A DNA stretch of 64,000 nucleotides. It comes from Candidatus Tayloriibacteriota bacterium. Lineage in GTDB: Bacteria; Patescibacteriota; Minisyncoccia; Phycocordibacterales; UBA6065. Every line of letters begins with the position of its first letter. Position 1 is the first letter of the stretch. Below, one piece after another: positions 4,751 through 63,557 of this stretch. The stretch covers positions 25,866 through 89,865 of the forward strand of contig JACRJQ010000008.1 of NCBI GenBank assembly GCA_016215405.1, in the 5' to 3' direction. The notes under the pieces were generated by a model. It did no database searches, was not told the DNA's origin, and saw nothing but the letters and a program-made list of their open reading frames with translations. The translations under genes and the position numbers were made by a program.

Positions 4751-5959
4751 GTGATAGTAAACCTCCAAAAGCCCGTCGTCTACGTCACGCGCGACATCGA
4801 GCGAGCTTTAGGCATGGAGCCTTCAGGGAGCTACTTCGTCATATCGAACGATACGGCATACGGCAGGAAGGTCCGGGAAGCGTATCCTGACAACGTCCTG
4901 CTCGTCCGCGACCGAGGCGAAACCTCGGTAAAAGATACCGAGGTTTCGCCTCGGTATCTCGATACATACGATCTCCTGCTCATGCCCGAGGTGCAGAGGG
5001 AAATCTCAGACCGCGACGCCGACCTCCTCGTATTCCAGAACACCCCCCGCATCGAAAGGCTCGCCAAAGAGAAGGGCTGGAGCCTCCTCAACCCGTCGGC
5101 CATGCTCTCGCGCGAGGTCGAAGAGAAGGTCTCCCAGGTGGCATGGCTCGGCGAGGACGCCTCTCTCCTGCCCCCTCACCGCATCGCGCTCGCAAAGGAC
5201 GCGAGGTTCGAAGGCGCGAAGTTCGTGCTGCAGTGGAACCACTCACATACAGGAGAAGGCACCTATGTCATAGATTCGGCCGAAGCACTCTCTTCTGTAG
5301 CCTCGAGATTCCCGGATCGAGAATGCCGGATAACGAGATTCGTCGAGGGGCCGGTATTCACCGTGAACTCGGTCGTCGCGGAGGCGATCATCGTCGGAAA
5401 CCCGAGCTATCAGATAACCGGCCTCGCGCCCTTCACCGACCTTCCCTTCTCTACCATAGGCAACGACTGGGACCTTCCCCGCGACGAAGAGTACGCGGCG
5501 GTGAGCGAGGAGGTCCGTAAGATGGCGATCCGTGTCGGAGAGAGGCTCCGGCTCTCGGGCTGGTACGGGCTCTTCGGCATCGACGCCGTCTACGACGAGA
5601 AAGCCGGAAAGACATATCTCCTCGAGATAAACGCGCGCCAGCCCGCCTCGACCACGCTCGAATCGAAGCTCCAGAAGAGCGACTCTATATTCGAAGCCCA
5701 CCTCTCTGCGCTCCTCGGCCTTCCGGCTGCGAGCGGTCCGGAGATACGAGGGGCGCAGATCGTAAAGCGCGTCACCCGAGAGGCTTATTCCATAGACGAA
5801 GCCGCCCTCTCGGATAAGGGCCTCTCCCTCATCGGATACGAGAACACCGAGCACAACAAGGAGATCCTGCGCATCCAATCCGAGAGAGGTATAATGAGAG
5901 CCCACAACAAGCTCAACGACCTAGGGATATCCATAGCATCATGCATCCGCAAGATATAG
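4751..5959 (+). CDS. ATP-grasp domain protein (peptide/amide ligase-like).
   Basis: C-terminal ATP-grasp signature LSGWYGLFGIDAVYDEKAGKTYLLEINARQPAST. The start is uncertain (GTG 4751 or ATG ~4812). The upstream part of the track ORF (4232-4750) overlaps rsmI and is not coding. Confidence 0.7.
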   Translation: MIVNLQKPVVYVTRDIERALGMEPSGSYFVISNDTAYGRKVREAYPDNVLLVRDRGETSVKDTEVSPRYLDTYDLLLMPEVQREISDRDADLLVFQNTPRIERLAKEKGWSLLNPSAMLSREVEEKVSQVAWLGEDASLLPPHRIALAKDARFEGAKFVLQWNHSHTGEGTYVIDSAEALSSVASRFPDRECRITRFVEGPVFTVNSVVAEAIIVGNPSYQITGLAPFTDLPFSTIGNDWDLPRDEEYAAVSEEVRKMAIRVGERLRLSGWYGLFGIDAVYDEKAGKTYLLEINARQPASTTLESKLQKSDSIFEAHLSALLGLPAASGPEIRGAQIVKRVTREAYSIDEAALSDKGLSLIGYENTEHNKEILRIQSERGIMRAHNKLNDLGISIASCIRKI

Positions 5960-6744
5960 ATACGGAAAAGACGGGAAGCTCAAAGCTCGAAGGCAAAGCC
6001 CGCGCCGTCGTGGATTCCTACCTCGCCTTGCCTCTCGGCACCAAGCCTTCTTGCCCCTATTTCAACAATCGCAGGCGCAAAGGGCGCGGAGGGCTGCGCG
6101 TCCTCGTCGGGAAAGGCGCGCCGGAGGAGATCGCGGGAGAGGCGGAGATATTCGCGCTCCGGCAAAGGATAAAGCTCAACCTTCTCTCGACCGATAAGCT
6201 CAAAGAGTTCCTCTGCGAAAACGACCTCGGCGTCGATTGCTCCGGTTTCGCCTATCATGCGCTCGATGCGCTCTGTCGGGAAAAGAGAGGAAGGGGCATA
6301 CAGAGCTTCGTGAAGTCGAATAGAACAGGAATCCTCGGAAAGATCCTCGCGAGGCTGCGCCCTGCCGAGAACCTCGGGGTGAGCTCCTTCAGAAACGACA
6401 AGAACGGCTCTGCCGTCAAAGTCAGAGACGCGATGCCCGGAGACCTCATCACCTTTATGGGCACGGGCCGCGACAAGACGTACAACCACATCCTCGTCAT
6501 AACAGGCGTCGATAGGCTCGGCGGCGATACGCGGCTCACCTACGCGCACTCCTACTCGTGGCCTTCGGACGGACTCTACGGCCACGGCGTCCGCGAGGGC
6601 GACATACTCGTCCACGGCGAAGACCTCCTCGGCGGGACATGGAAGGAACAGGGTCAGACCGGAAGCGACAACTATACGTTTACGAGCGCTCGCGACGCGA
6701 AAGAAGTCTCGCTGCGCCGGCTGAATTTCCTTGTTGAGAGATAA
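5941..6744 (+). CDS. Putative papain-like/NlpC-P60-like cysteine peptidase or amidase (Cys-His), overlapping the ATP-grasp gene by 19 nt.
   Basis: DLGVDCSGFAYHAL (candidate catalytic Cys) and downstream YNHILVITGVD (candidate His). The 19-nt overlap with the ATP-grasp gene suggests translational coupling. Confidence 0.4.
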   Translation: MHPQDIDTEKTGSSKLEGKARAVVDSYLALPLGTKPSCPYFNNRRRKGRGGLRVLVGKGAPEEIAGEAEIFALRQRIKLNLLSTDKLKEFLCENDLGVDCSGFAYHALDALCREKRGRGIQSFVKSNRTGILGKILARLRPAENLGVSSFRNDKNGSAVKVRDAMPGDLITFMGTGRDKTYNHILVITGVDRLGGDTRLTYAHSYSWPSDGLYGHGVREGDILVHGEDLLGGTWKEQGQTGSDNYTFTSARDAKEVSLRRLNFLVER

Positions 6745-6747
6745 TCT

Positions 6748-6775
6748 CGCCGCGCCGTAAGGCGCGGCTTTTTCT
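6748..6775 (+). terminator. Rho-independent terminator hairpin (GCCGCGCC-GTAA-GGCGCGGC + T-run).
   Basis: gccgcgccgtaaggcgcggctttttcttc, directly after the stop of the peptidase-like gene. Confidence 0.5.
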
Positions 6776-6785
6776 TCTCTTGCTA

Positions 6786-6882
6786 CCCCGCCGGATCCGC
6801 ATCCTCCTTTGCGAAGAACTGTCTGAGCCGAGTCCTCGAAGGCGAGTTCGGCAAGAAATAAGGCATGGATCGGCTGAAAGAA
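6786..6882 (+). repeat. Copy A of a ~95-nt conserved intergenic element (imperfect inverted repeat ending GGATCGGCTGAAAGAA), immediately downstream of a terminator and upstream of mraY.
   Basis: It aligns base-by-base with copies at 10712-10805 and 34295-34391. The shared core is ATCCGC..CTTTGCGA(A/G)GA..GTCTGAGCC..GAGG(A/G)CG..GCA..GAAA..GCGGATCGGCTAAAGAA. Confidence 0.55.
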
Positions 6883-6958
6883 AACGTTCGATTCAGAAGC
6901 CTATGAAAATTCATTCTAAACCTTCAAATTTGGCCCTTTCTGGCGTATACTCCACCTC

Positions 6959-8092
6959 ATGACCGACTTCCTCCCCACCCAGATACAAAGCCTCACCTCG
7001 CTCCTCGGCTGGGCCATCACATCGGCGCTTGTAGCCCTTATCTGGGCGCCTTTCCTTATAAAATATCTGCGCCTCTGGGGCATAACCAGGCAGAGCGCGG
7101 GGGACGCCACCATGGGCATGGAATCGCGCCAAGGCAAAGCCGCTACGCCTATCATGGGAGGCCTCCTCATAATACTCACGGTACTCCTCCTCACCTACTT
7201 CTGGAATTGGGAGAGGCGCTACACATGGGTGCCTATCGGCGTCCTGGGCATCTCAGCGCTCCTTGGCGCCGTCGACGACCTCCTCAACGTCTTCGGCTCC
7301 GAGCGCAGGCAGAGGTCTCTTTCCCAGACCTTTACCCTCATCCGCGTCCACAAACTCTGGTACGCGAAGCTCTGGCTCATCGTCACCTTGCCGTGGACGG
7401 TCTTCAAGAGAGCGACGACGATCTTCGGCTCCAAGCAGCGCCGCGGAGTGCTCGTGCACGAGAAGCTCCTTCTCCAATTCGCCGCCGGAGGAATATCGGC
7501 ATGGTGGATCTATTGGAAGCTCGGAGAGAGCTGGCAGAACATCTATGTGCCATGGCACGGCTATCTCGATATAGGGGTCCTCGTCGTGCCCCTTATAATC
7601 CTCATCGTCATGTTCACGGCGAACGCGGTTAACGTGTCCGACGGCATGGACGGCCTCGCCGGCGGCATGCTCATCCCGACTTTCGGCGCCCTCGCCTTCA
7701 TGGCGTGGGTATCCGGCTACAGCGAGCTCGCCGTCCTTAACTCAGTGACCGCCGGCGCTCTCCTCACCTATACCTATTTCAATATAAAGCCGGCCAGATT
7801 CCAGATGGGAGATGTAGGCAGCTTGGGCCTCGGCGGGCTCCTCGCCATAAACGCCCTCGCCACGAACTCGATGATCATCCTCCCTTTCATCGCCTTCATG
7901 TTCTACGCCGAAGCCCTGACGGTCATACTCCAGACGGTCGGACGCCACGTCTTCGGACGCCGCATATTTCGCATGGCTCCCCTCCATCACCATCTCGAGC
8001 TCCGCGGCTGGTCGGAAGAGAAGGTCATCATGCGCATGTGGGTCGTCCATCTTGGTTTCGTCGTCTTGGGCGTCTGGATAGGGCTCCACTAA
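6959..8092 (+). CDS. mraY: Phospho-N-acetylmuramoyl-pentapeptide transferase MraY.
   Basis: NAVNVSDGMDGLAGG, APLHHHLELRGW, 10 TM helices. Confidence 0.9.
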   Translation: MTDFLPTQIQSLTSLLGWAITSALVALIWAPFLIKYLRLWGITRQSAGDATMGMESRQGKAATPIMGGLLIILTVLLLTYFWNWERRYTWVPIGVLGISALLGAVDDLLNVFGSERRQRSLSQTFTLIRVHKLWYAKLWLIVTLPWTVFKRATTIFGSKQRRGVLVHEKLLLQFAAGGISAWWIYWKLGESWQNIYVPWHGYLDIGVLVVPLIILIVMFTANAVNVSDGMDGLAGGMLIPTFGALAFMAWVSGYSELAVLNSVTAGALLTYTYFNIKPARFQMGDVGSLGLGGLLAINALATNSMIILPFIAFMFYAEALTVILQTVGRHVFGRRIFRMAPLHHHLELRGWSEEKVIMRMWVVHLGFVVLGVWIGLH

Positions 8093-9265: not shown

Positions 9266-10663
9266 ATGGAAAATCCCAAGAAGGTCCACTTCATAGGCAT
9301 CTGCGGCGTCGCTATGAGCGCCGTGGCGACTGCTCTGTGGCAGAAAGGATTTAAAGTGACAGGATCTGACGCGGGCTTCTATCCGCCCGTCTCGACGCAC
9401 CTCTCGAACGCGGGCATCCCCTACTATTCGGGCTGGCATCCGGAGAAGATGGTCGAGGGCGGCGCGCCGGACCTCGTCGTCGTGGGCAACGCCGTATCGA
9501 GCCAGAATCCCGAATTCGTCTACGTAAAAGAGAGAGGCATCCCTTTTAAATCCTATCCAGAAGCCGTGGGCGAACATCTCATAAAGCCCCATTCGGTGGT
9601 CGCTTCTGGCACGTACGGCAAGACGACTTCATCCGCGCTCCTCTCGCACATATGGAAGCATGCGAGCCTGAAGCCGTCGTACATGTACGGCGGACTCACT
9701 CAGGACGGCGCTCCGTCAGCCGCGGCGGATTCGGGCGAATGGTCTATCGTCGAAGGAGACGAATATTCCACTTCGAAATGGGACAAGGGAGCGAAATTCT
9801 TCCACTACAGGCCTACGCACCTCCTCCTCACGGCGGTAAAGTGGGACCATGCCGACCTCTACCCTACGGAAGAATCGTACTTCGACGCTTTCAAGAAGCT
9901 CGTCTCCCTCGTGCCCAAAGACGGCGTTATCGTCGGATGCATAGACGTCGAGAGCGTCCCCAAGCTCCTCGCGAAGAGGGATTTCATAAGCTACGGAGCT
10001 CACAAGGACGCGTCGTACAGGTACGAGAACATCGTCCAGACTCCTTCCGGACTCACTTTCGATATCGTCTACCACGGCAAGAAGTACAATATCGAATCCC
10101 CTCTCCTCGGCGCATACAACGCAGAGAACATCACGGGCTGCTTCGCTATGGCGTACGCGTGCGGCATCTCCCCCGGAGACATCTCGGATGCGATAAAGAC
10201 GTTTCCCGGGATGAAGAGGCGGCTCGAAAAGCGCTACGAGAACGCCGTGACAGTGATAGACGATATCGCCCATTCGCCGGAGAAGGCGCGATCGGTCCTC
10301 AACAACCTCCGCCACATCTACTCAGGTCTCGTCATCGCCGTCTACGAGCCGAACATCGGCAACCGCACGACCCAATCGAAGCCGGCGTACAAGGATGCGT
10401 TCAAGGACGCTGACACGGTCGTCATCCCCCGCCTCACGAAGCTCAAGGTAGACCCCGACAATCCTGAGGCGTATTTCGACGGAGACGAGCTCGCCGCGAC
10501 CATAGAAGAGAGCCACAAGGAGGTGCACTATCTCGACAGCGACGAAGAGCTCGTCGAATTCCTGGTAAAAGCCCGCGGCAAAGGCGACGTTATAGCGTTT
10601 TTAGGCTCCCACGGCTTTCGCGGGATGATAGAAGAGACGGTAAAGAGGCTGGCACAAAACTAG
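9266..10663 (+). CDS. Mur ligase: UDP-N-acetylmuramate:L-alanyl-gamma-D-glutamyl-meso-DAP ligase (Mpl)-like, or MurC.
   Basis: HFIGICGVAMSAVATAL...VTGSDAGFYPPVSTHL closely parallels the E. coli Mpl N-terminus (ILGICGTFMGGLA...VTGSDANVYPPMS). GTYGKTTSSA P-loop. Confidence 0.8.
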   Translation: MENPKKVHFIGICGVAMSAVATALWQKGFKVTGSDAGFYPPVSTHLSNAGIPYYSGWHPEKMVEGGAPDLVVVGNAVSSQNPEFVYVKERGIPFKSYPEAVGEHLIKPHSVVASGTYGKTTSSALLSHIWKHASLKPSYMYGGLTQDGAPSAAADSGEWSIVEGDEYSTSKWDKGAKFFHYRPTHLLLTAVKWDHADLYPTEESYFDAFKKLVSLVPKDGVIVGCIDVESVPKLLAKRDFISYGAHKDASYRYENIVQTPSGLTFDIVYHGKKYNIESPLLGAYNAENITGCFAMAYACGISPGDISDAIKTFPGMKRRLEKRYENAVTVIDDIAHSPEKARSVLNNLRHIYSGLVIAVYEPNIGNRTTQSKPAYKDAFKDADTVVIPRLTKLKVDPDNPEAYFDGDELAATIEESHKEVHYLDSDEELVEFLVKARGKGDVIAFLGSHGFRGMIEETVKRLAQN

Positions 10664-10669
10664 AAAAAC

Positions 10670-10695
10670 CACGTCAGAGGCGTGGCTTTTCTTAC
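10670..10695 (+). terminator. Rho-independent terminator after the mpl/murC-like gene.
   Basis: aaaaaccacgtcagaggcgtggcttttctt. Confidence 0.5.
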
Positions 10696-10711
10696 CTCCC
10701 CTCTCCAACCT

Positions 10712-10805
10712 CCTGTCGAATCCGCGTTCTTCTTTGCGAGGATCGTGCCGAGTCTTCGAGGACGCTTGCGCTCCGCAGCAAAGAAAACGCGGATCGGCTA
10801 AAGAA
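10712..10805 (+). repeat. Copy B of the ~95-nt conserved intergenic element (inverted repeat ATCCGCGTTCTTCTTTGC / GCAAAGAAAACGCGGAT).
   Basis: Aligned with copies A and C. An 18-nt near-perfect inverted repeat flanks a ~50-nt core. It follows the terminator at 10670-10695. Confidence 0.55.
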
Positions 10806-10857
10806 GGAGCTTGGATTCCGGGTCAAGCCCGGAAAGACAGAGGAGGGTGGGGACCCT

Positions 10858-11022
10858 CTATTTTCCCTCGTCCACGATCTCTAGAGCGACCTTATCTCCA
10901 TCGAGAGAGACGACCTCGAGCACGATCCCGCACAGAGGGCATTCTATGACGTACCCCTTAGTGATCTTCGGATGCTTCGAGACGTCGATATCGTTCTTGC
11001 ATTCTGGGCAGACGCATTTCAT
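10858..11022 (-). CDS. LysW/ArgW-like zinc-ribbon mini-protein (54 aa).
   Basis: MKCVCPECKNDIDVSKHPKITKGYVIECPLCGIVLEVVSLDGDKVALEIVDEGK. It matches the LysW architecture CPEC...C..CG..LEVV.LD plus an acidic tail, but the C-terminus is EGK rather than ...EE/DWGE. The larger track ORF (10858-11292) is only its out-of-context upstream extension. Confidence 0.5.
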   Translation of the reverse strand: MKCVCPECKNDIDVSKHPKITKGYVIECPLCGIVLEVVSLDGDKVALEIVDEGK

Positions 11023-14788: not shown

Positions 14789-14796
14789 TATAGCAA

Positions 14797-14820
14797 AACC
14801 GCCCTGTAGGGCGGTTTTGC
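14797..14820 (-). terminator. Rho-independent terminator downstream of pyk.
   Basis: aaaaccgccctgtagggcggttttgc. Its flanking A/T runs allow bidirectional function. Confidence 0.5.
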
Positions 14821-19164: not shown

Positions 19165-19195
19165 GACATGAGAAAACCGCCCTTTCGGGCGGTTT
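19165..19195 (-). terminator. Hairpin terminator immediately 3' of 16S rRNA.
   Basis: aaaaccgccctttcgggcggttttcttcgc. Confidence 0.4.
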
Positions 19196-19351
19196 TCTTC
19201 GCAAATATGTATACTGTCCTCTATTTTGTTCCGTTCTGGTCGTAGGTTCTTCCCCTACATCCATGCAGTTTAAGGTGTCTGCAAAACCCGGATGCTAGGC
19301 ATCCGATCGACTCCGTTAGCTTTCATCCAAAAAGGACGAAGAGCGTGTTTT

Positions 19352-20855
<1,504 letters not shown>

Positions 20856-21260
20856 AAACCGCAGATGGAGATCCCGAAGGACTTCTATCTGAGGCGAACG
20901 GAACAAAATAGATCACAGTATGCGAACTATCTTCTTCCTGGGAGATTCACGGGTGCTTTCCCGCCTCCACGATCCTATGGAGCATGGGGTCGAAAGCCCT
21001 CTTACAAATTTTCATTTGAATAGAGCCTACCCTCATGCTTATATCCGAAGAATACACTTGAACTTGCACAATACAGTTAGGATACTGTTTTACCAGTACA
21101 CTTTAACTTGCATTTGTTCTCTCCGCCGTGGCCAATGTGGCCCGGCGGAATTGATTATCTCAATATTTCAACGATCTCCTCACTAAGAGACCGAGGGAAT
21201 CAAAAAGTGCTTTACCAGCACTTTCTGACGTCCCACAAGGCTCTCAATGAGGTAAGGGTA

Positions 21261-33017: not shown

Positions 33018-34142
33018 ATGGAGACCGCAGCGCGCAAGAAACTCCTCATACTCATAACGAAATCGAACTTCGGGGGCGCTCAGCGCTACGTTTTCGATCT
33101 GGCGAGGTCGCTTAAAGGAAGATACGACGTCACGGTAGCCCTCGGAGGCGACGGGATGCTCAAAGCGAAGCTCGAAGAGGCGGGGATTCGCGTCGTATCC
33201 ATCCCCTATCTGGCGAAGAGCGTAAACCCGTTGAAGGACGCTCTCGTGTTCTTCTGGCTCTGGAAGACGCTTAAGCGGGACAGGCCGGATATCGTTCATG
33301 TGAATAGTTCGAAGATCGGCGGCGCCGGTGCCTTCGTCGCGAGGATGATAGGGATAGACAAGGTGGTCTTCACCGCTCACGCATGGGCGTTCAACGAAGA
33401 CAGGAGCGCTATCGCGAAAGGCCTTATCGCGTTCCTTCACTGGCTCACGGTGATGCTCTCTCATAAGACCATCGCCGTCTCTGGCGCGGTAAAGAGACAG
33501 ATATCCCACCTTCCCTTCATGGACTCGAAGATAGAGGTCGTCCACCTCGGGCTCGAGCCCGTGGAGGCTTTCTCCCGCAAGGACGCGCGCAAGCTTTTGG
33601 AGATAAAAGAGAAGGAGTTCGCCATAGGGACGATAGCCGAGCTTCATCCTATAAAAGGGCTCAACTACGCCCTAGAATCGCTTTCCACGGCGCCCTTCGA
33701 TTTCTCTTACACCATAATCGGCGAAGGGGACGCCCGAAAGAGCCTCGAAAAAACGATAGCTGCCGCGCCCAAGCTCGCAGGCCGCGTCAGGCTCGCGGGA
33801 TTCCTCCCCGACGCGCCGAAGCTCCTCCCCGCTTTCGACATATTCCTCCTGCCCTCCCTTTCCGAGGCGTTCGGCTATGTCCTCTTGGAAGCCGGACACG
33901 CGCGGCTCCCTGTGATAGCGTCATCGGTGGGAGGCATCCCTGAGATCATCGAGGACATGAAGTCCGGCATCCTCATCCATCCAAAGAATCCGAAAGAGAT
34001 CGAACGGGCCATAGCCCACCTCTACGAGGACGAGGTGACGAGAGACAACCTCGCATTCACGCTCATGAACAAGGTAAAGAAGGAATTCTCCCTACAAAAG
34101 ATGGTGGAAGGGACGGTGGCGGTTTACGAAACTGCAAAATAA
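33018..34142 (+). CDS. Family 4 glycosyltransferase (GT-B, group 1).
   Basis: FGGAQRYVFDLARSL...EAFGYVLLEAGHARLPVIASSVGGIPEII. Confidence 0.8.
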   Translation: METAARKKLLILITKSNFGGAQRYVFDLARSLKGRYDVTVALGGDGMLKAKLEEAGIRVVSIPYLAKSVNPLKDALVFFWLWKTLKRDRPDIVHVNSSKIGGAGAFVARMIGIDKVVFTAHAWAFNEDRSAIAKGLIAFLHWLTVMLSHKTIAVSGAVKRQISHLPFMDSKIEVVHLGLEPVEAFSRKDARKLLEIKEKEFAIGTIAELHPIKGLNYALESLSTAPFDFSYTIIGEGDARKSLEKTIAAAPKLAGRVRLAGFLPDAPKLLPAFDIFLLPSLSEAFGYVLLEAGHARLPVIASSVGGIPEIIEDMKSGILIHPKNPKEIERAIAHLYEDEVTRDNLAFTLMNKVKKEFSLQKMVEGTVAVYETAK

Positions 34143-34249
34143 GCTACTCGCGATTTCTAGACTGGTCTTTGAAATTTTTCTTTTAGCCCTTTCCTTTGTC
34201 GGGCACAGATAATCCCAACAAGGGAAATGGACGGAGGTTGAGAGAGGAA

Positions 34250-34290
34250 ATAGCCCGATTCGCGAAGCGAACCGGGCTATTTTCCCTCTT
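34250..34290 (+). terminator. Rho-independent terminator after the GT4 gene.
   Basis: aaatagcccgattcgcgaagcgaaccgggctattttccctctt. Confidence 0.5.
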
Positions 34291-34294
34291 AATA

Positions 34295-34391
34295 CCCCGC
34301 CGAGCCCGCGTTCTTCTGAGCGAGGACTGTCTGAGCCTGAATCTATGAGGGCGAGTTCCGCAGCGAGGAAAATGCGGATCGGCTAAAAGAA
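34295..34391 (+). repeat. Copy C of the ~95-nt conserved intergenic element.
   Basis: ccccgccgagcccgcgttcttctgagcgaggactgtctgagcc...gagggcgagttccgcagcgaggaaaatgcggatcggctaaaagaa aligns with copies A and B. Confidence 0.55.
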
Positions 34392-34447
34392 AAACTATAG
34401 GATGCAGCGCGGACGCATCGCCCCCAAAGCAACTATGGTCGTTTTGC

Positions 34448-35593
34448 CTAAATACCCAAAAACTCGTTCTTCGTCTCTTCCCTATGCGCGTCGCGCATGT
34501 AGCGGCGATGGGATTCGAGGATGCCCAGGGCGAAGAACGCCGTGAGAAGATGCGAGCCTCCGTAAGATACGAACGGCAGAGTGATCCCCGTCACCGGCAG
34601 AAGCCCCATATTCATGCCGACGTTTACGAGGAAATGGCTCATAAAAAGAGTCGCGAGTCCGAGGCCGTAGAGTATCTCGAAATTAGTAGCTCCCCGCCAT
34701 GAATTCGCGATGATCCGCCAGATAAGGAGCGCGAAAACGGCGAAGAACAGGATCACCCCTGCGAATCCCCACTCTTCCGCGAACGCGGCGAAGACGAAGT
34801 CCGTCTGGTATTCCGGAAGGAACTTGAGCTTCGATTGCGTGCCGTATCCTATCCCTTTCCCCCATATCTCCCCCGACCCGACAGCGACCATCGATTGATA
34901 GGCGTTATATCCCGCTCCGCGCACGTCCGAGAGCGGATGGATGAAGGAAACGATGCGGGCCTTCTGATAATCCTTGAAACCGAAGCTCCAAAGCAGCGCG
35001 AACGCTACGGCGCCGCAAGCGATAAGGGTGAAAAGGTGCCTCTTGGAGAGCCCTGAGACGAGCGTCATGCCAAGCCAGACGAGAGCTATGATGACGGCGC
35101 TGCCGAAATCCGGCTGCAAAGCCACGAGAAAGAAGAGGATCGCCGCGTATACCCCAGAGACGATTATATGGCGGATATTGGCTATCTCGATGTGCCTTTT
35201 CGAGAAATATTTCGCGAGGATGAGGATGAGGAGGACCTTCGCGAAATCGGTGGGCTGAAACGATACGGATCCGAACTGTATCCAGCTCTGCGCTCCCTTT
35301 ACTTCGGCTCCGAGGAGAAGGAGGCCGGAAAGAAGGAGTATCATGAGGCCGAAGAGAAGGACGAGGACTTGGGTCCTTTTAAGGAAAGACCAGTCGATGA
35401 ACGACGCCGCGAAGAACGTCGCGACAGAGACGCAGAGCCACATGACCTGCCTCGCGAAATAGGGGTCGTCCCCGACGAACGAATTCATCGTGACGAGCCC
35501 GAAGAGGACGAGCACGACGGCCGACCCGAGCATCACCCAGTCTATGCGGAACCGCGCGAAAGACGCGGCGGCCTTTTGTATCATTTCGGACAT
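34448..35593 (-). CDS. SEDS-family peptidoglycan glycosyltransferase (RodA/FtsW).
   Basis: 381 aa, 10 TM helices. QPDFGSAVII, FAAFAEEWGFAG, LPFVSYGGSHL. Confidence 0.85.
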   Translation of the reverse strand: MSEMIQKAAASFARFRIDWVMLGSAVVLVLFGLVTMNSFVGDDPYFARQVMWLCVSVATFFAASFIDWSFLKRTQVLVLLFGLMILLLSGLLLLGAEVKGAQSWIQFGSVSFQPTDFAKVLLILILAKYFSKRHIEIANIRHIIVSGVYAAILFFLVALQPDFGSAVIIALVWLGMTLVSGLSKRHLFTLIACGAVAFALLWSFGFKDYQKARIVSFIHPLSDVRGAGYNAYQSMVAVGSGEIWGKGIGYGTQSKLKFLPEYQTDFVFAAFAEEWGFAGVILFFAVFALLIWRIIANSWRGATNFEILYGLGLATLFMSHFLVNVGMNMGLLPVTGITLPFVSYGGSHLLTAFFALGILESHRRYMRDAHREETKNEFLGI

Positions 35594-36420: not shown

Positions 36421-36543
<123 letters not shown>

Positions 36544-36742
36544 CTCAATCCTCGCTATTTGAAACACAACAGATAAATATGAATTCTGAGAAAAGACAGT
36601 AAGCCTGAGCTTCCTGTGATTTCTAAATTTCCTAATAAGATCGGGTAATTAGTACTTCTCGGCTTAACACATTACTGTGCTTACACCTAAAGCCTATCAA
36701 CCTAGTAGTCTTCTAGGGCCCTCAAACGATTCCTTATCTTGG

Positions 36743-36785
<43 letters not shown>

Positions 36786-36921
36786 GACATAGCTACTCTG
36801 CGTTGCCACGGGCGTGACAGCAGATAGACCAGCGGTCCGTTCACTTCGGTCCTCTCGTACTAGAAGCAAAGCTCCTCAAGAATCAACGCCTGCAGTAGAT
36901 AGGAGACCAACCTGTCTCACG

Positions 36922-37200
36922 CTTCTTTTCGCATGTTGCCATGCGGAATGGACTATATCTTCATCCTTATTTATTTATTCATAAGGAGATCAACGTGTAG
37001 TCTCTACGGACGGGAACCCGCGCTCCCTTTCCTCGGTATTGCCCCCAATCATCTCCATTGTGGGTTTTACCGATATTAGTTGATGACGTACATGAAAGTT
37101 GCCCTTCATGACCGCCGTGATTGGTTGTGTCTCGTTTGTTTGTCCTTGATGTCCGAGGGATTCAGACTGTAGAGCCTATAATCTTTCGATTATGTTCTCC
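36922..37200 (-). other. ~280-nt ORF-less insertion (putative group I intron) in 23S at the E. coli ~2593 (I-CreI) site.
   Basis: It interrupts the conserved gctgggttcagaacgt|cgtgagacagg. The exon sequence resumes precisely on both sides. Confidence 0.55.
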
Positions 37201-37860
37201 ACGGTCTGAACCCAGCTCACGTGCCTTTTTAATTGGCGAACAGCCAAACCCTTGGGACCTTCTCCAGCCCCAGGATAAGACGAGCCGACATCGAGGTGCC
37301 GAACTCCGCCGTCGATATGAACTCTTAGGCGGAACGAGCCTGTTATCCCTAGAGTAGCTTTTGTCCGATAATCTTCCCCCGCATCTAATGCGTAAGGTCG
37401 GTTCACTTAGCTCTGCTTTCGCATCTGCTCGACAAGTACGTCTTACAGTTAAGCAAGTTTATGCCCATACACTATCGCCACGGTTTCCATTCGCGGCTAA
37501 CTTACCTTAATAGGCTCCTCCGTTACTTTTTAGGAGGATAGCGCCCCACTAAAACTACCCACCAGATACTGTCTCCCGCGGTTTTTGCCCTCGGGGTTAG
37601 AACATACAACGGCGAAGAACGCTATTTCACTGGCGACTCCATGCTGGCCGAAACCGCACTTCAAAGTCTCACGTCTATGCTACGCATCGCAATCGTATGC
37701 TCAATATCAAGCTGTAGTAAAGCTTCTAGGGTCTTTTCGTCTAACTGCAGGTACCCGGCATCTTCACCGGGATTGTATTTTCACCGAGCTGTACTTCGAG
37801 ACAGTTGCCCAGACGTTACACTATTCAACGCGTCAGAACTTACCTGACAAGGAATTGCGC

Positions 37861-38073
37861 TCAACTATTCCTCAGAGTTGGACTCTATCTTCAGCCTCTC
37901 TTTTAAGGGAGTAGGCTGCGCGGCGTTGGTCTCTATTTGACCGCGTACGGACTGACGGTGCATTACTGCCACCTCAGGTAGCTATCTGTGTAATTTCTAT
38001 TAGGCTCTTATTTATCAACACAACTATAGATCCGTCCCAGTCCTTCTGCATCCTTCCGAAGAAAGATGCAGAA
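37861..38073 (-). other. ~210-nt ORF-less insertion (putative intron) in 23S at the E. coli ~1925-1931 site.
   Basis: It interrupts the conserved ggtcctaagg|tagcgaaattccttgtcgg. The flanking sequence matches E. coli on both sides. Confidence 0.5.
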
Positions 38074-38917
38074 CCTTAGGACGGTTATAGTTACCGCCGA
38101 CATTCACCAGGGCTTACATTCATCAGCTTGATATAATCGCACCGCAAATGGTTGACCTTCTGGCATTGGTCAAGTGTCACCCCCTATACATCCTCTTACG
38201 AGTTCGCAGGGAGCTGTGTTTTTGATAAACAGTCGCCAGGCATACTTTAGCTGCGGCCCCTTGAGTAAACAAAGGGCAAGCCTTATCGCTAACTTACGGC
38301 TGCTTTTTTGCCGAGTTCCTTGAAGTACCTTCACTCGTTCGCCTTCGTCTTCTCGACGTGATCACCTGTTTCGGTTTTCGGTACGGATCACCTCCGGTTG
38401 TGCTTAGAGACTTTTCTTGAAAGCGCGCTTTGCATAGTTCCCCGTAGCAAGCTACGGCTTCCCTCCTGTCTTTAGGCTCGCTAATTGAATAGCTGCTTGC
38501 GGGATTTTCCTCGCAAACGCCCTCTGACCAAAGACCCCAATCCAATAAGGGGCTACGCATACTGTGCTCCGTCATCCCATCGCACCGGGTGTGAGTCACG
38601 GAATATTAACCGTGTGTCCATCAGGTACGGCTTTCGCCATCCCCTTAGGCCCGACTAACCCTTCGCTGATATCCATTGCGAAGGAAACCTTAATCTTTCG
38701 GCGTGCGGATATCCCATCCGCATTGTGGTTACTTGTGCCAACATTCTTACTTCTCTACGCTCCAGCATGGGTCACCCCTTTGCCTTCAGCGCGAAGAGAA
38801 TACTCTCCTACCAGAACATCTATACGAATATAGATGCAATCCTCAGTTTCGGTATCATGCTTTAACCCCGATCATCTGCGGCGCAGACTCTCTAAGTGAG
38901 TGAGCTGTTACGCTTTC

Positions 38918-38949
<32 letters not shown>

Positions 38950-39529
38950 TCACCGTCGAAGAAAATCCACCACCTCCCTTGTACTTAGCATGAATTTTGG
39001 GACCTTAAATTGAGATTCGGGCTGTTTCCCTTTTGTCTAATGGAGCTTAGCCCCCACAGACTTACTGCCGTTCTTTTGACCAGAGGTATTCGGAGTTTGA
39101 TAGGTTCTGCGATCTTTCGACCTGTCAGAATCTTCCAGTGCTCTACCCCCTCTGGGAACGAACGACGCTATGCCAAAACATATTTCGGAGAGAACCAGCT
39201 ATTACCGAGTTCGATGAGCTTATCACTCCATACCACATGTCATCGCAGAGTATTGCACGTCTCTAGCGTTCGGTCCTTCCTCTATCTTTCGACAGAGTTC
39301 AACCTGCACATGGCAAGCTCACCCGGCTTCGGGTCTGATACGTACTACTTTGTCGCGCTATTCACACTCGGTTTCCCTGCGGCTCCGGGCATTCAAGCCC
39401 TTAGCCTTGCAGCACGCATCAACTCGTTGGCTCATTCTTCAATAGGCACGCCGTGACGGTAATAAATTACCGCTCCGACTCCTTGTAAGCATATGGTTTC
39501 AGTTCTATTTCACCTCCCTCTCCGGGATA

Positions 39530-39569
<40 letters not shown>

Positions 39570-40442
39570 TTCTGGAATATTTAGCCTTAGCGGTTAGTTC
39601 CGCCAGATTCCCTCAGGCTATTCGTGTCCTGAGGTACTCAAGAATGGCAATAAAAGAGGTGTTTCGCTTTCGCGCACGGGACTATCACCCTCTGGGGTCT
39701 GTCTTTCCAGACAATTACGCTAACGAAACACTTTGTAACTCTTTCCACTATAAATAGTGACACTGCCACCTTACTACCCCCGATCTTAATCGCGTCCTAC
39801 GTCTTGCGACATAATCCGCGATTAAGACCGAGTTTGGGCTATTTCGCTTTCGCTCGCCACTACTAACGAAATGTTGTCGACATACATCGACATTGTTTTC
39901 TCTTCCTCCTGGTACTGAAATGTTTTACTTCCCAGGGTACGCTCATTCATGTCAAGCATGAATGTCTCTGGTATCTCTACCAGAGGAGTTGCCTCATTCG
40001 GAAACGACCGGATTAACGCCTGTTCAGCGGCTCCCCGATCATATCGTTGCTACACAACGTCCTTCATCGCTTCTCAGAAGCCTAGGCATCCACCATATGC
40101 TCTTAAATTTCCTATTAGGAAATTTAAAAACCACTTAACTTCTCTCAATGATATCGGCCTGCTTACAACAGACCGACATACAATTCATTTTTACCTGTTG
40201 CCCGTTTCTTTTGGTAAAGAAACGGTTTATCTCGATCTACCGTCTATAGATAGATGAGAATCGTCTCGCGCTCTTCTTTTGACGGGCCGACCTGGCCCTA
40301 AGCGCGTACGGGGTTTCGTTTTCAAATAACTCTCTGAAAGAAAAACCGCTCTTCGGAGAGCGGCATCGGAACAGGGCCAAATCAATGGCCTATTTGATGC
40401 GCGTTCTCTTAAGGGGATTCAACATATTCAGAGGTAGCCATA

Positions 40443-40470
40443 AGTATACTTACCCGCGTTTTAGAGTCAA
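40443..40470 (-). promoter_or_regulatory. Putative 23S rRNA promoter TTGACT-N16-TATACT.
   Basis: Reverse complement: cttgactctaaaacgcgggtaagtatact. It contains the 14-nt palindrome gtaagtatacttac. Confidence 0.4.
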
Positions 40471-40541
40471 GCTTTTTTCAACGATTCCGCCTTTTCGTCA
40501 AAGCCTCCGCCCTGTCGCGGCTCTGTGGAGCCATAGATTAC

Positions 40542-45160: not shown

Positions 45161-45391
45161 GAAGGCTCTCCGAAAGCAAAAGCGAGTCGCGCTCACCCGA
45201 GCGCGGCTTTTTTATCGAAAGGGCCGAAAGCGCTCCGAGGAGAAAGAGAAAACCACCCCGACGGGTGGTTTTCGTGTCTATTGAAGGATATCCGAGCGTT
45301 ACTTAAGCTCGACCTTATCACGGATGATTTTCTGCTGAAAATCTCCGCGACCCCGCCTCCCCGCCCAAGGCGGGTCCGGCCGAAAGGTCGC

Positions 45392-45760
45392 TTACTTAAG
45401 CTCGACCTTTCCTCCTGCTGCCTCGATGTCCTTCTTGAGCTTCTCCGCGTCCTCTTTCTTGACGCCTTCCTTGAGAACCTTAGGAGCTCCGTCGACGAGG
45501 TCCTTAGCCTCCTTGAGGCCGAGGCCGAGGGCCTCTTTGACGACCTTGATAACGTTGATCTTAGATGCGCCGCCGTCCTTAAGCTCTACCGTGAAGGTAG
45601 ACTTCTCCTCTGCCGCTGGGGCTGCCGCTGGGGCTGCCGCTACCGCTTGCGCCGAGACTCCGAACTTCTCCTCGAGATGCTTTACGAGCTCGTGGAGGTC
45701 GAGGACCGACATAGTGTCGAGCGAGTCGACGATTGCCTTGAACTTTGCTGGGGTTTCCAT
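45392..45760 (-). CDS. rplL: 50S ribosomal protein L7/L12.
   Basis: [35 protein letters not shown]...[34 protein letters not shown]. Confidence 0.95.
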
Positions 45761-45809
45761 TGTGATAATAGTGGTAACAGATTGCTAATATATATGTTCT
45801 ACTCTTCCG

Positions 45810-46346
45810 CTAAGCCGTAGGCGCTGCCGCTGGAGCCGCTGCCTGAGCCTCCGCCGGCGCTCCCTTCTTCTTCGCTATCTCGCTCGCCGCTATGACGAAG
45901 CGCTGTATAGGAGAGTTGATGAGATTGACGACCTGAGCGTAGAGGGTCTTCTTGTCTGGGATAGACGCGTACGAGACGACGTCTGCCTTCGTGATGAACT
46001 TCCCTTCGAAGATGCCTCCGAGGATCGAGAGCTTATCCTTGTTCTTCTTGAGGAAGCTTCCGACCTCGCGGGCGGTAGAGAGGTTGTCCGCGCTATACGC
46101 GACCGCGACCTCTGCTCCCATCTCCGGCCTCGATCCTTCGATCTTGGCTGCGTCGAGGGCCCTGCCCATAAGGGTCTTCTTGGAGACGAGGAAGCTCACG
46201 CCTTGGGCCTTGAAGCCTTTTCGCATGGCGTTAGCCTCGTTCACCTTGAGCCCCTTGAATCCGACGAAGACGGCTCCCTTCGAGCCCTTAAAGACCGTCT
46301 CGAGCTCCTGTATGAGCTCCTTCTTCCTGTCTTTGCTAAGTGGCAT
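45810..46346 (-). CDS. rplJ: 50S ribosomal protein L10.
   Basis: MPLSKDRKKELIQELETVFKGSKGAVFVGFKGLKVNEANAMRKGFKAQGV... Confidence 0.9.
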   Translation of the reverse strand: MPLSKDRKKELIQELETVFKGSKGAVFVGFKGLKVNEANAMRKGFKAQGVSFLVSKKTLMGRALDAAKIEGSRPEMGAEVAVAYSADNLSTAREVGSFLKKNKDKLSILGGIFEGKFITKADVVSYASIPDKKTLYAQVVNLINSPIQRFVIAASEIAKKKGAPAEAQAAAPAAAPTA

Positions 46347-51313: not shown

Positions 51314-52123
51314 TTACGGGTTCTTGGAGAGCTCCGCGTGTCTCGCCTTCATCTTTTCGACGAGCTCGCGGAACGCGCGAGACTGCTCGAGGAGGATAAC
51401 CGCCTTTTTGCAGCCGTGGATCGAGGCTCCGTGGTCTTCCCTGCGCAAGAGCGCACTCACGCGGCCGTAAGACATCTCGAAGTTCGTCCTCAGGATATGC
51501 ATGAGGGCGAACCTGATATTGCTTAGGGCCTCGGGACGCTCCTTGCTCAAGATCCGGTCGAGGCGCTCGCCTGTCACGTCGCAGGCCGCCTTCAAAAGGA
51601 GCTGCACCGAGACAGGGCACGCGTCAGGCTCGCCTTCCAGCCGATAATGGCTCGGCAGTCCGGAGAGCAGCTTCTCGATAGCCTCCGCGTCGGAAGGCTT
51701 CAGGGGCCTGTCCGTCGCGCGCGGCGCGACCGAAAAGCTCGCTCTCATGACGTCTCGCGAGAGGACGAGCATGAGCTGGATCCGCCCCAGAGCGTCGACG
51801 TCGAGAGGGACCCCTTTTTGCTTTAGGCCGTCCCAGACCGCACTCACGAACTCCTTCGTGAAGCGCGGCAACATGCCGATCTTCGCGGCCGTCTCCACGA
51901 TGCTGTGCGGACGGAGCCCGTTCTGCAGGCCGTAGTGCTCGAGGAACGCGCGCTTGAACAAAGGAGGGATCTCCTTCGAATCGAGGGCATTCACCGAGGC
52001 GACGAACCTGCGCATGACGGAGACAAGCTCGGGAACCGCCTGCTTTATCTGTCGCAGCTCGATCCACGAGAACCTGATCGCACCCTCGCTCCCGAGGGTG
52101 GATTGCCCTTTGAGAGGCTTCAT
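51314..52123 (-). CDS. DnaA C-terminal (domain IV, HTH) domain-containing protein lacking the AAA+ module.
   Basis: C-terminus LSNIRFALMHILRTNFEMSYGRVSALLRREDHGASIHGCKKAVILLEQ matches the DnaA domain IV HTH. No Walker motifs upstream. Confidence 0.5.
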   Translation of the reverse strand: MKPLKGQSTLGSEGAIRFSWIELRQIKQAVPELVSVMRRFVASVNALDSKEIPPLFKRAFLEHYGLQNGLRPHSIVETAAKIGMLPRFTKEFVSAVWDGLKQKGVPLDVDALGRIQLMLVLSRDVMRASFSVAPRATDRPLKPSDAEAIEKLLSGLPSHYRLEGEPDACPVSVQLLLKAACDVTGERLDRILSKERPEALSNIRFALMHILRTNFEMSYGRVSALLRREDHGASIHGCKKAVILLEQSRAFRELVEKMKARHAELSKNP

Positions 52124-52833: not shown

Positions 52834-53471
52834 AACTCGCGGCTCTCCCCTTCCTTTATAACTACGAATTGGATCCCAAGGGGCACGAGCACCGATTCCG
52901 GCACTCGATGCACTGGTCCGAGCTTGTCCGGCATGAGCATCCCCTCATGCACCGGAAAGGCGAATTTCGGCTTCATCTTTTTAGCGTAATCGACGCATTC
53001 TGAAAGCGTCGCCCAAGGACCCGCGACCGGCAGAGCGAGTATATCGATAGGCTTCTGCGGATCGGCGAACGAATCGCCGGGATAGAAGAGCCGATCGCCT
53101 ATGAAATACGCCGTATTCTCGACGACCTTAAGGCCCTGATACATAGGCCAGTGGTCCATGCCGAAGCCCTCGATCCTTACGCCCTTCCTCTCGACCGTCT
53201 GACCGTGTCCCACCAGCGTGTACCTGATCCCTTCTTTGTCCAAGATCTGCCCTACCCCTTTGTTGGTGAGAACCTCCGCCGCTGGGTTGTTCGCGAGCAC
53301 CTCCTTGAGAGACCCTACGTGCAGATGGTCTGCGTGCTCATGGGTGATAAGGACGATGTCGACGCCTTTGGCCTGGTTCTGCGCCGTCGAATACGCGCCA
53401 GGATCAGTAAGGATAGTCAGCCCCCTCTCCTCTATCACCAGACAACAATGTCCGAATTTCGTTATCTTCAT
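52830..53471 (-). CDS. MBL-fold metallo-hydrolase.
   Basis: VLITHEHADHL (HxHxDH), downstream His/Asp ligands. Confidence 0.85.
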   Translation of the reverse strand: MKITKFGHCCLVIEERGLTILTDPGAYSTAQNQAKGVDIVLITHEHADHLHVGSLKEVLANNPAAEVLTNKGVGQILDKEGIRYTLVGHGQTVERKGVRIEGFGMDHWPMYQGLKVVENTAYFIGDRLFYPGDSFADPQKPIDILALPVAGPWATLSECVDYAKKMKPKFAFPVHEGMLMPDKLGPVHRVPESVLVPLGIQFVVIKEGESREF

Positions 53472-62688: not shown

Positions 62689-62966
62689 TCGGCGACCGGG
62701 CTCGAAGATACGCGCTTCAAGACGACGAAAAGCCGAGGGCGAATGCCCCGGCTTTTCGTAACTTGGTTGCATCTGCAAAAGATCGGAACTGCCGCGAGGC
62801 GTACCTCGCGGTCCGCAGACCATCATACGCAGAAGCGATAAAAGAAATATAAAATCGCTCTCTTGCCTTGGGGATATCGATAGAGGGCCGCCCTAAGTAG
62901 ACAACCTGTCTGCGTTAGGCTAGGATAAAGCCCTGTTAAGCCTTATTTAGATATACACCAACCAGC

Positions 62967-63557
62967 ATGGCGATGCTTGAATACAACGAGATAACGGTAC
63001 GCAAGTACATAGTGATCGAGGGCGCACCCTATGAAGTGATCGAGAACCACATCGCGCGCACCCAGCAGAGGAAGCCTCAAAACCAGACGAAGGTGAAGAA
63101 CCTCCTCACCGGGCGGCTCTCTAACATGACGTTCCACGCCGCAGACAAGGTGGCAGAGGCCGAGATCGACACCCGCGAGGCGAAATTCCTCTATACCTCT
63201 AAAGGAGAGTTCTGGTTCTGCGACGCGAACAACCCTGCCAAGAGATTCAAGATCTCTGCCGAGATACTCGGCCCGAAAGCGCTCTTCCTCAAGGCGAACA
63301 CCGTATACGACACCATGGTATTCGTCGACCCTGAGAACGAGGACGGCGAAGGGACGATCTTCGGAGTAAAGCTCGATCCGACCGTAGACCTCAAGGTCGT
63401 CGAAGCTCCTCCCGGCATAAAAGGCGATACGGCTCGAGGAGGCAATAAGCTCGTCAAAGTTGAGACGGGCGCCATGGTCACCGTTCCCCTCTTCGTGAAC
63501 GAAGGCGATACTATAAGGATAAATACGGAGACGGGCGAATATAGAGAGCGAGCGTAA
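62967..63557 (+). CDS. efp: Elongation factor P.
   Basis: 196 aa. KPQNQTKVKNLLTGR...three OB-like domains. Confidence 0.9.
   Translation: MAMLEYNEITVRKYIVIEGAPYEVIENHIARTQQRKPQNQTKVKNLLTGRLSNMTFHAADKVAEAEIDTREAKFLYTSKGEFWFCDANNPAKRFKISAEILGPKALFLKANTVYDTMVFVDPENEDGEGTIFGVKLDPTVDLKVVEAPPGIKGDTARGGNKLVKVETGAMVTVPLFVNEGDTIRINTETGEYRERA

Follow-up and report, generated by a model that had tools for sequence, protein, structure and literature searches.

A ~120-bp imperfect-palindrome repeat adjoining terminator hairpins in a Candidatus Tayloriibacteriota genome

An intergenic repeat has been found in a 64,000-nt stretch of a Candidatus Tayloriibacteriota genome (contig JACRJQ010000008.1; this whole stretch is called the window hereafter), in which a sequence-only reading had pointed out three copies of a novel conserved element. 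There are four paralogous copies, designated A to D, and comparison with related genomes has shown that all of them are insertions relative to the corresponding loci of those genomes. We consider, with a probability of about 0.6, that the repeat is a lineage-specific intergenic family of imperfect palindromes of ~120 bp, which is non-coding and non-autonomous and belongs to the same kind as MITEs (miniature transposable elements with inverted repeats), REPINs and ERIC sequences. This assignment is based on the diverged paralogous copies, the palindrome, the lack of coding capacity and of transcription signals of its own, the insertions relative to relatives, and the uneven preservation of the hairpin. 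The part of the source genome examined was the window and 2.6 kb of the Logan contig L013 (SRR12113407).

Copies of the repeat and empty sites in related genomes

A profile constructed from copies A, B and C recovers all three with nhmmer at E values from 1e-25 to 1e-28, and nothing else was found in the window below E 1. Their pairwise global identities are 78–83%, with alignment scores ~10 standard deviations (sd) over those of shuffled sequences, and the relatedness of the three copies noticed in the sequence-only reading is therefore firmly supported. The length of ~95 nt given there was too short, because the homology continues on both sides and the unit is ~121–124 nt long in A, B and C; the left extension is a pyrimidine-rich block, (C)CTCT..., starting straight after the terminator tail, and the right extension covers ~12 nt beyond the A-run, to ...GAT(T/G)C(A/C)G. 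An unfiltered covariance-model (CM) scan of the window revealed the fourth copy, D, which occupies the 110 nt between the stop codon of the GT4 gene (34142) and the hairpin preceding C. Copy D is 78–85% identical to the other copies across 80–82 aligned nt (scores 4–6 sd over shuffles) and retains both family ends, the left end (CCTCTCTCAACCTCC) being nearest to that of B and the right end (GGCTAAAAGAAAAA) being an exact 14-nt match to that of C; it is internally shortened by ~37 nt, and the ATCCGCG/CGCGGAT blocks are missing from both of its arms, as is the block GGATCGGC.

Each copy is an imperfect palindrome composed of the arms GYCGRRYCCGCRTYCTYCT..GCGARGA and TCCGCAGCRARGAAAAYGCGGATCGGC and a variable apex of ~30 nt, and the blocks CCGCRTYCTYCT and GGATCGGCTRAA are conserved in A, B and C. 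The inverted arms can be written as GYCGRRYCCGC...GCGGATCGGC, and are lengthened in copy B to CCAACCTCC...GGAGCTTGG. The ends of the element are asymmetric, the left being CTCT-rich and the right being GGCT-AAAGAAAA, and the termini can be summarised as CTCT...GGCTAAAAGAAAA. The copies thus have inverted repeats around a short core without a conserved open reading frame (ORF), as MITEs do, and, according to the consensus structure, the folds and the positions, they consist of two inverted units and a spacer, form hairpins and are extragenic, as do REPINs. A protein-coding micro-ORF can be ruled out, because indels of 5 nt and 4 nt between the copies break any reading frame, in accordance with the sequence-only reading, and because the only ORF that direct reading found in the element, a minus-strand one of 28 codons in A, is not present in C. 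Two further candidates for copies were rejected: a 17-mer match at 53057 is a chance match within a gene for a metallo-beta-lactamase-fold protein, and the sequences behind other TTTTCTTT-tailed terminators (40345 and 1580) are merely ordinary terminator tails.

The inverted repeat that had been pointed out in copy B is a strong hairpin, with a minimum free energy of −44 to −55 kcal/mol and z from −3.6 to −4.4; the plus strand gives −55 kcal/mol and z −4.4, and the minus strand z −3.0. Such a strong hairpin is confined to B: neither A (z +0.6) nor C (z −0.4) gives a better fold than shuffled sequences, and copy D forms its own shorter hairpin of 16 bp (z −2.5). RNAalifold gives an unfavourable covariation term, and A has many broken pairs. 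Because of these z scores and this covariation term, the fold scores are best read as a sign of decay and not of structural selection. Neither strand is singled out as the transcribed one by the numbers of G.U and A.C pairs in the stem (~10 versus 5). The promoter scan found no sigma-70-like promoter before any copy, the palindrome is followed on its own strand by an A-run and not by a T-run, and an own promoter and terminator bounding the element were not seen across all copies on either strand.

The three loci that contain the copies were compared with the corresponding loci of six relatives (L002, L003, L014, L153, L155 and L156), whose flanking proteins are 74–89% identical to those of the window, and all three loci are empty in these relatives: the intergenic gaps are 194–305 nt in the window versus 8–79 nt in the relatives. 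At locus A, the gap is 214 nt here, and in L002 and L003 the orthologue (258–261 aa) of the upstream gene is separated from mraY by 8 nt and 38 nt, respectively; in L156 (MraY 86% identical), a hairpin is followed by 17 nt and then by the conserved promoter, without the element. At locus B, the gap between mpl and lysW is 194 nt here and 23–79 nt in L002, L003, L014 and L156, and the two gaps that were read, those of L002 and L014 (Mpl of the latter 84% identical), contain only a terminator hairpin. At locus C/D, the gap between the GT4 gene and rodA is 305 nt here, 70 nt in L153 (RodA 87% identical) and 59 nt in L155 (89%). Element-free hairpins are thus present at the corresponding loci of L002, L014, L155 and L156. 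We rejected the view that 7-mers which L014 and L153 have at their empty sites are homologous to GTCGAAT/ATCCGCG of the element, because about one such match is expected by chance. In the JGI contig of a further relative, which encodes P0244 (sample 3300071325; MraY 85% identical) and has genes at 715–1488 and 1695–2828, a gap of 206 nt precedes mraY, close to the 214 nt of the window, an observation of length only, and the mpl–lysW gap is 40 nt.

Searches for the element outside the source genome gave no homologue. CM, nhmmer and blastn searches found no matches in 1.35–1.43 Mb of Paceibacteria DNA, which comprised 80 loci around the SSB gene and the loci of the relatives compared. The two-anchor pattern CCGCRTYCTYCT-N45-75-GGATCGGCTRAA, which fits A, B and C, had no match across the 596 Gb of GTDB genomes; the best SSB match among the GTDB representatives is 82% identical, suggesting that the source genome is outside that collection. 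The same pattern gave only six chance matches in JGI metagenomes, unrelated and mostly coding, and a shortened pattern without the trailing RAA gave 57 chance matches in IMG/VR, many of which have the same match span of 95 nt and none of which has nhmmer similarity to the element. No blastn match was found in phage and plasmid records. Rfam gave nothing at gathering thresholds, and relaxed searches of the three loci gave only microRNA and small-RNA noise, 20–70 bits under threshold; a known RNA family is ruled out by these results. The element may therefore be called novel in the sense that it has no match in Rfam or the collections searched, but it is of a well-known kind and is conserved solely among paralogous copies of one genome, and thus the word "conserved" in the sequence-only reading is misleading.

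Junctions with terminator hairpins and neighbouring genes

All four copies adjoin a GC-rich hairpin, with the CTCT end proximal and the GGCT-AAAGAAAA end distal to it, and each plus-strand copy is preceded by a terminator-like hairpin and a T-run (Table 1). The spacers between the hairpin base and the element are 8 nt in A, 7 nt in C, 5–7 nt in D and 14 nt in B; the last becomes 8 nt if the extra ACCTCC is counted within the element. The junctions read GGCGCGGC / TTTTTCTT / CTCTTGC... for A, where the copy starts right after the 8-nt tail, GGCGTGG / CTTTTCTT ACCTCC / CCTCTCC... for B, CCGGGCT / ATTTTCC / CTCTTAA... for C, and, on the minus strand, CGGGCT / ATTTC(C) / (T)CTCTCTCAACC... for D. 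Copies D and C sit on opposite sides of one bidirectional hairpin with both CTCT ends toward it, and the region 34143–34447 consequently folds as a single giant palindrome (z −5.4). The common orientation assigned to the copies by the sequence-only reading accordingly holds relative to the adjoining hairpin and not relative to the strand, since D is on the minus strand; likewise, each plus-strand copy does follow a hairpin with a T-run, but at locus C the stop codon of the GT4 gene lies 110 nt before the hairpin and copy D is in between.

No homology could be demonstrated among the adjoining terminator hairpins. The tail TTTTCTTT, common among terminators in the window, corresponds to the element's right end in reverse complement, and this end provides a T-run after a small host hairpin of the opposite strand in C and, more weakly, in D. 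No direct repeat that might be a target-site duplication was found at any plausible boundary of the four copies; such duplications, if old, could have decayed.

Table 1. Positions in the window of the repeat copies, the adjoining hairpins and the flanking genes
Feature	Position	Strand	Description
Copy A	6776-6898	+	CM R1 118.7 bits; 78-79% identity to B and C; arms GCCGGATCCGC...ATGGATCGGC, right end GGCTGAAAGAAAAC; palindrome degenerate
Copy B	10700-10822	+	CM R1 122.4 bits; arms CCAACCTCCTGTCGAATCCGCGTTCTTCTTTGC...GCAAAGAAAACGCGGATCGGCTAAAGAAGGAGCTTGG; palindrome best kept
Copy C	34285-34408	+	CM R1 123.6 bits; 79-83% identity to A and B
Copy D	34162-34247	-	CM R1 23.5 bits, E 7.6e-5; inverted, diverged, 86 nt
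Hairpin A	6749-6776	+	Terminator of 267-aa gene; GCCGCGCC-GTAA-GGCGCGGC (6749-6768), then TTTTTCTT; terminator scan
Hairpin B	10662-10692		Bidirectional, between mpl (+) and lysW-like gene (-); AGAAAAA-CCACGTC-AGA-GGCGTGG-CTTTTCT; scans of both strands
Hairpin C/D	34252-34278		Central, bidirectional; AGCCCGATTCGC-GAA-GCGAACCGGGCT, flanks AAAT and ATTTT
Small hairpin	34401-34419	-	GATGCGTCCGCGCTGCATC, downstream of rodA; T-rich tail CTATAGTTTTTCTTTT from right end of copy C; terminator scan
9-mer	6733-6741	+	GTTGAGAGA; 7 nt left of hairpin A
Predicted mraY promoter	6923-6951	+	TTCAAA-N17-TATACT, 7 nt before ATG 6959; promoter scan
267-aa gene	5941-6744	+	No Pfam match; upstream flank of locus A
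mraY	6959-8092	+	Downstream flank of locus A
mpl-like gene	9266-10663	+	Locus B, convergent with LysW-type gene
LysW-type zinc-ribbon gene (lysW-like)	10858-11022	-	Locus B
GT4 glycosyltransferase gene	33018-34142	+	Locus C/D, convergent with rodA/ftsW
rodA/ftsW	34448-35593	-	Locus C/D

A 9-mer to the left of hairpin A, GTTGAGAGA, is the plus-strand reading of the terminal TCTCTCAAC of copy D. It has two occurrences in the window, and the second is the end of copy D itself, which is equally distant from the hairpin of D. At locus A the 9-mer encodes the last codons, V-E-R, before the stop codon of the 267-aa gene. The C-terminus of this protein is two residues longer than those of the relatives and diverges after the conserved RRLNF: it ends in ...RRLNFLVER* (6730–6744), and the orthologues end in ...RRL(K/N)F(AI/QK)*. 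It is suggestive only, as the match was noticed post hoc, that the 9-mer is what remains of an inverted (D-type) copy's left end at locus A; repeat-derived DNA may in this way have reshaped the 3′ end of the 267-aa gene.

Copy A had been placed in the 5′ leader of mraY, and this placement does not agree with the predicted mraY promoter, which is downstream of the copy. Because copy A is located upstream of this promoter and behind the terminator of the 267-aa gene, it is probably contained in neither transcript. The predicted promoter ends 7 nt before the ATG, which implies that the mraY mRNA would be leaderless or have a very short leader. A −10-like box (TATAAT or TATACT) is found 6–8 nt before the ATG of mraY in L002, L003 and L156, and the full TTCAAA-N17-TATACT is also present in L156. 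We have also observed −10-like boxes (TATACT, TATAAT and TATACA) that precede the mraY and efp start codons by only 6–9 nt (6923–6958 and 62950–62975 in the window, 5840–5862 in L002, 6868–6885 in L003 and 49–85 in L156). These positions suggest leaderless or near-leaderless mRNAs in this lineage, the spacing at mraY being common to three related species.

Other features of the window

The Mpl-like ligase, RodA and MraY of the window are 100% identical to proteins recorded at NCBI for a Candidatus Taylorbacteria MAG (tags HZA81_03725 and HZA81_03710). The GC content of the window is 56.6%, its genes are closely packed with intergenic gaps mostly below 150 nt, and GC skew over the whole window is uninformative as to a replication-strand bias. 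The rRNA genes are unlinked (19353–20856, 36428–36535 and 36628–40120, all on the minus strand): a distance of 15.8 kb, in which protein-coding genes lie, separates the 16S gene from those for 23S and 5S. The match to the 23S model is 3493 nt long versus 2925 nt for the model, which implies that an intervening sequence or intron adds ~570 nt; no intron family was found at the Rfam gathering thresholds. A candidate for a small transcription unit on the minus strand (~40340–40473), located just upstream of the 23S gene, consists of a promoter-like TTGACT-N17-TATACT, ~95 nt, and a terminator, GCCGCTCT-CCGA-AGAGCGGT followed by TTTTCTTT; no Rfam match to it was found at E up to 1.

Three similar bidirectional terminator hairpins, AAAACCGCCC....GGGCGGTTTT, are present at 14795–14818, 19173–19196 and 45249–45272 and are 79–92% identical, and the hairpin at the mpl locus of L014 resembles the C/D hairpin of the window; terminator hairpins may thus form small repeat families in these genomes. 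GC-rich tandem repeats of 12 nt (CTGCCGCTGGGG and variants) occupy 45598–45861, in or between the genes for L7/L12 (45392–45760, minus strand) and L10 (45810–46346, minus strand); their product is probably an Ala-, Gly- and Ser-rich linker of low complexity. A 269-aa protein (51314–52123, minus strand) gives a sub-threshold match to the C-terminal helix-turn-helix domain of DnaA (27.8 bits versus a cutoff of 31.5), and is a short DNA-binding protein that resembles DnaA without being a complete one.

Origin of the repeat and comparison with known systems

Among the options listed in the sequence-only reading, that of a REP/MITE-like repeat is favoured by the diverged copies, the imperfect palindrome, the lack of coding capacity and the empty orthologous sites. 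On this mobile-type reading, the copies would have been spread by a trans-acting enzyme encoded outside the window, and this enzyme would most plausibly act on hairpinned single-stranded DNA, given the lack of target-site duplications; another possibility is that they were spread through template switching, or through recombination, at hairpins. The copies would have been decaying since then, with a strong hairpin left only in B. Their adjacency to terminators may reflect either hairpin-directed insertion or survival at harmless sites just beyond the U-tract, the latter because the ancestral gaps would have been only 8–79 nt and an insertion elsewhere would destroy a gene or a terminator; four copies cannot separate these two possibilities. 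Effects on the host would be secondary: the antisense of the element may be contained in the 3′ untranslated region (UTR) of lysW (copy B), rodA (C) and the GT4 gene (D), and the A-rich right end would supply an opposite-strand T-run beside small host hairpins.

Several observations weigh against a mobile-type repeat. Only four copies are known, all within 64 kb, and mobility is deduced from filled and empty sites between species with proteins 74–89% identical and not between strains. The Pfam scan found no transposase, RAYT or TnpB domain in the ~55 proteins of the window, nor a Y1-transposase domain, and, in addition to the lack of target-site duplications, clean terminal boundaries cannot be defined in the four copies. 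In the CM-fitted alignment, 84.6% of cells are paired versus 76.7% in shuffles, and six pairs are altered on both sides, mostly through D; this alignment has four rows and leans to the modelled structure, and was therefore read only as a tendency of the hairpin potential to persist. It suggests that the hairpin potential has been partly retained, which could equally mean function, and the constant spacing and polarity at terminators could mean a terminator-related role.

REPINs, which are REP doublets forming hairpins and mobilised by RAYT transposases (Bertels and Rainey, 2011, PMC3116915; PMC3337134), appear to have the closest architecture, namely two inverted arms and a spacer without target-site duplication, with membership in a specific family not established. 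Like the present repeat, REPINs are extragenic, with two inverted arms of ~25 nt, a less conserved spacer and a hairpin of ~90 nt (PMC3116915; PMC3337134), have no ORF, and decay and vary among the copies of one genome. Unlike them, the present repeat has asymmetric conserved single-stranded ends (CTCT... and ...GGCT-AAAGAAAA), and no RAYT or other HUH gene was seen in the window; REPINs usually number hundreds per genome, and four copies were seen here in 64 kb. The consistent placement at terminator hairpins is not a described feature of REPINs, and no sequence similarity between REPINs and the element was found. The ERIC, RUP and Correia MITEs (Delihas, 2011, PMC3184786) are also similar, being imperfect intergenic palindromes of ~105–157 bp which are often located at the 3′ ends of genes, form long stem-loops and, when related genomes are compared, have both filled and empty sites. 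They have defined terminal inverted repeats and target-site duplications (e.g. TA), and sometimes a parent insertion sequence; in the present case, no duplication was found, no parent insertion sequence was found in the window or the collections searched, and the host is a bacterium of the Candidate Phyla Radiation (CPR) with a very compact genome. SPRITE carries a terminator-like motif, that is, a hairpin and a T-run, within itself, whereas GGCT-AAAGAAAA, with its A-run, follows the palindrome on its own strand here; also unlike SPRITE, the adjoining terminator hairpins differ in sequence between the loci, and at loci B and C/D a hairpin is found in element-free relatives too. With regard to placement, group IIC introns (PMC1702495) provide a parallel, as they typically lie in one fixed orientation just downstream of terminator motifs (an inverted repeat and then T's). 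As ribozyme retroelements with conserved domains, those introns measure from several hundred to ~2000 nt, whereas the present element is ~120 nt, a simple hairpin without a ribozyme, and Rfam gave no group II hit for it even at E 10.

A more specific explanation, which we consider unlikely, is a mobile element directed by hairpins or terminators, in which a trans-acting enzyme would read GC-rich hairpins or terminated 3′ ends and insert the element after the U-tract with fixed distance and polarity. The same end faces the hairpin in all four copies at spacers of 5–8 nt, and both sides of one bidirectional hairpin are occupied by D and C; these placements, the 9-mer equal to the D end at the matching distance from hairpin A, the element-free hairpins of the relatives, and the absence of target-site duplications, which is expected for HUH or IS110-type mechanisms, are all consistent with it. 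The argument from polarity is weak with four copies (p about 1/8), the 14-nt spacing of B differs, the 9-mer is an observation made post hoc, and, with ancestral gaps of 8–79 nt, purifying selection alone would leave insertions just past the terminator tail. To our knowledge, no candidate enzyme is known for such hairpin-directed insertion. A still bolder form of the proposal, to which we also give little credence, is an undescribed hairpin- or terminator-guided insertion mechanism in a CPR bacterium, with fixed polarity, 7–8 nt beyond the base of GC-rich intrinsic-terminator hairpins and on either side of a bidirectional hairpin, in which the T-rich ends would complete or create the terminators of flanking genes.

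Functional explanations appear less probable again. The repeat might be a cis-acting RNA hairpin associated with 3′ UTRs and terminators, which would stabilise or destabilise mRNAs, or insulate against read-through, at the ends of convergent genes, and roles of this type have been reported for some REP and ERIC copies. Copies B, C and D do lie between a stop codon and a strong hairpin on the strand of lysW, rodA and the GT4 gene, the diverged copy D retains hairpin potential, and the right end supplies the T-run after small hairpins of the opposite strand; nevertheless, we hold this explanation improbable, since no gene reads through copy A in that orientation and this copy is behind a strong plus-strand terminator, the folds of A and C are not better than those of shuffled sequences, the stem pair counts favour neither strand, and the orthologous genes of the relatives do without the element. 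The lowest probability is given to the remaining options of the sequence-only reading, a small RNA gene family or a DNA site for a binding protein (nucleoid-associated or of the gyrase/IHF type, as in BIMEs). The repeated, partly palindromic and intergenic nature of the element, and the blocks shared by A, B and C, are compatible with them. A small RNA gene is made improbable by the missing promoter, the terminator just upstream, the A-run in place of a T-run after the palindrome, the shuffle-like folding of A and C, the lack of an Rfam match and the absence of the element from all relatives searched, and a fixed protein-binding motif by the complete absence of the blocks GGATCGGC and ATCCGCG from copy D.

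We thus return to the mobile-type reading, under which the element is of an ordinary kind in an unusual host. Genomes of CPR/Patescibacteria are extremely small and gene-dense, and in the present compact genome the repeat has widened intergenic gaps from tens of nt to 200–300 nt. Our literature search found no description of REP-like repeats in CPR/Patescibacteria. Should the placement be due to targeting rather than to survivorship, a new insertion activity that recognises hairpins would be indicated; the guided insertion outlined above, if true, would parallel the targeting of group IIC introns at the DNA level, and the family would be the first of MITE-like type to be characterised in CPR. 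Such a repeat could serve as a marker of variation between strains, lead to breaks in assemblies, or account for spurious "conserved intergenic elements" in genome scans, and its presence shows that even CPR genomes tolerate selfish or neutral repeats.

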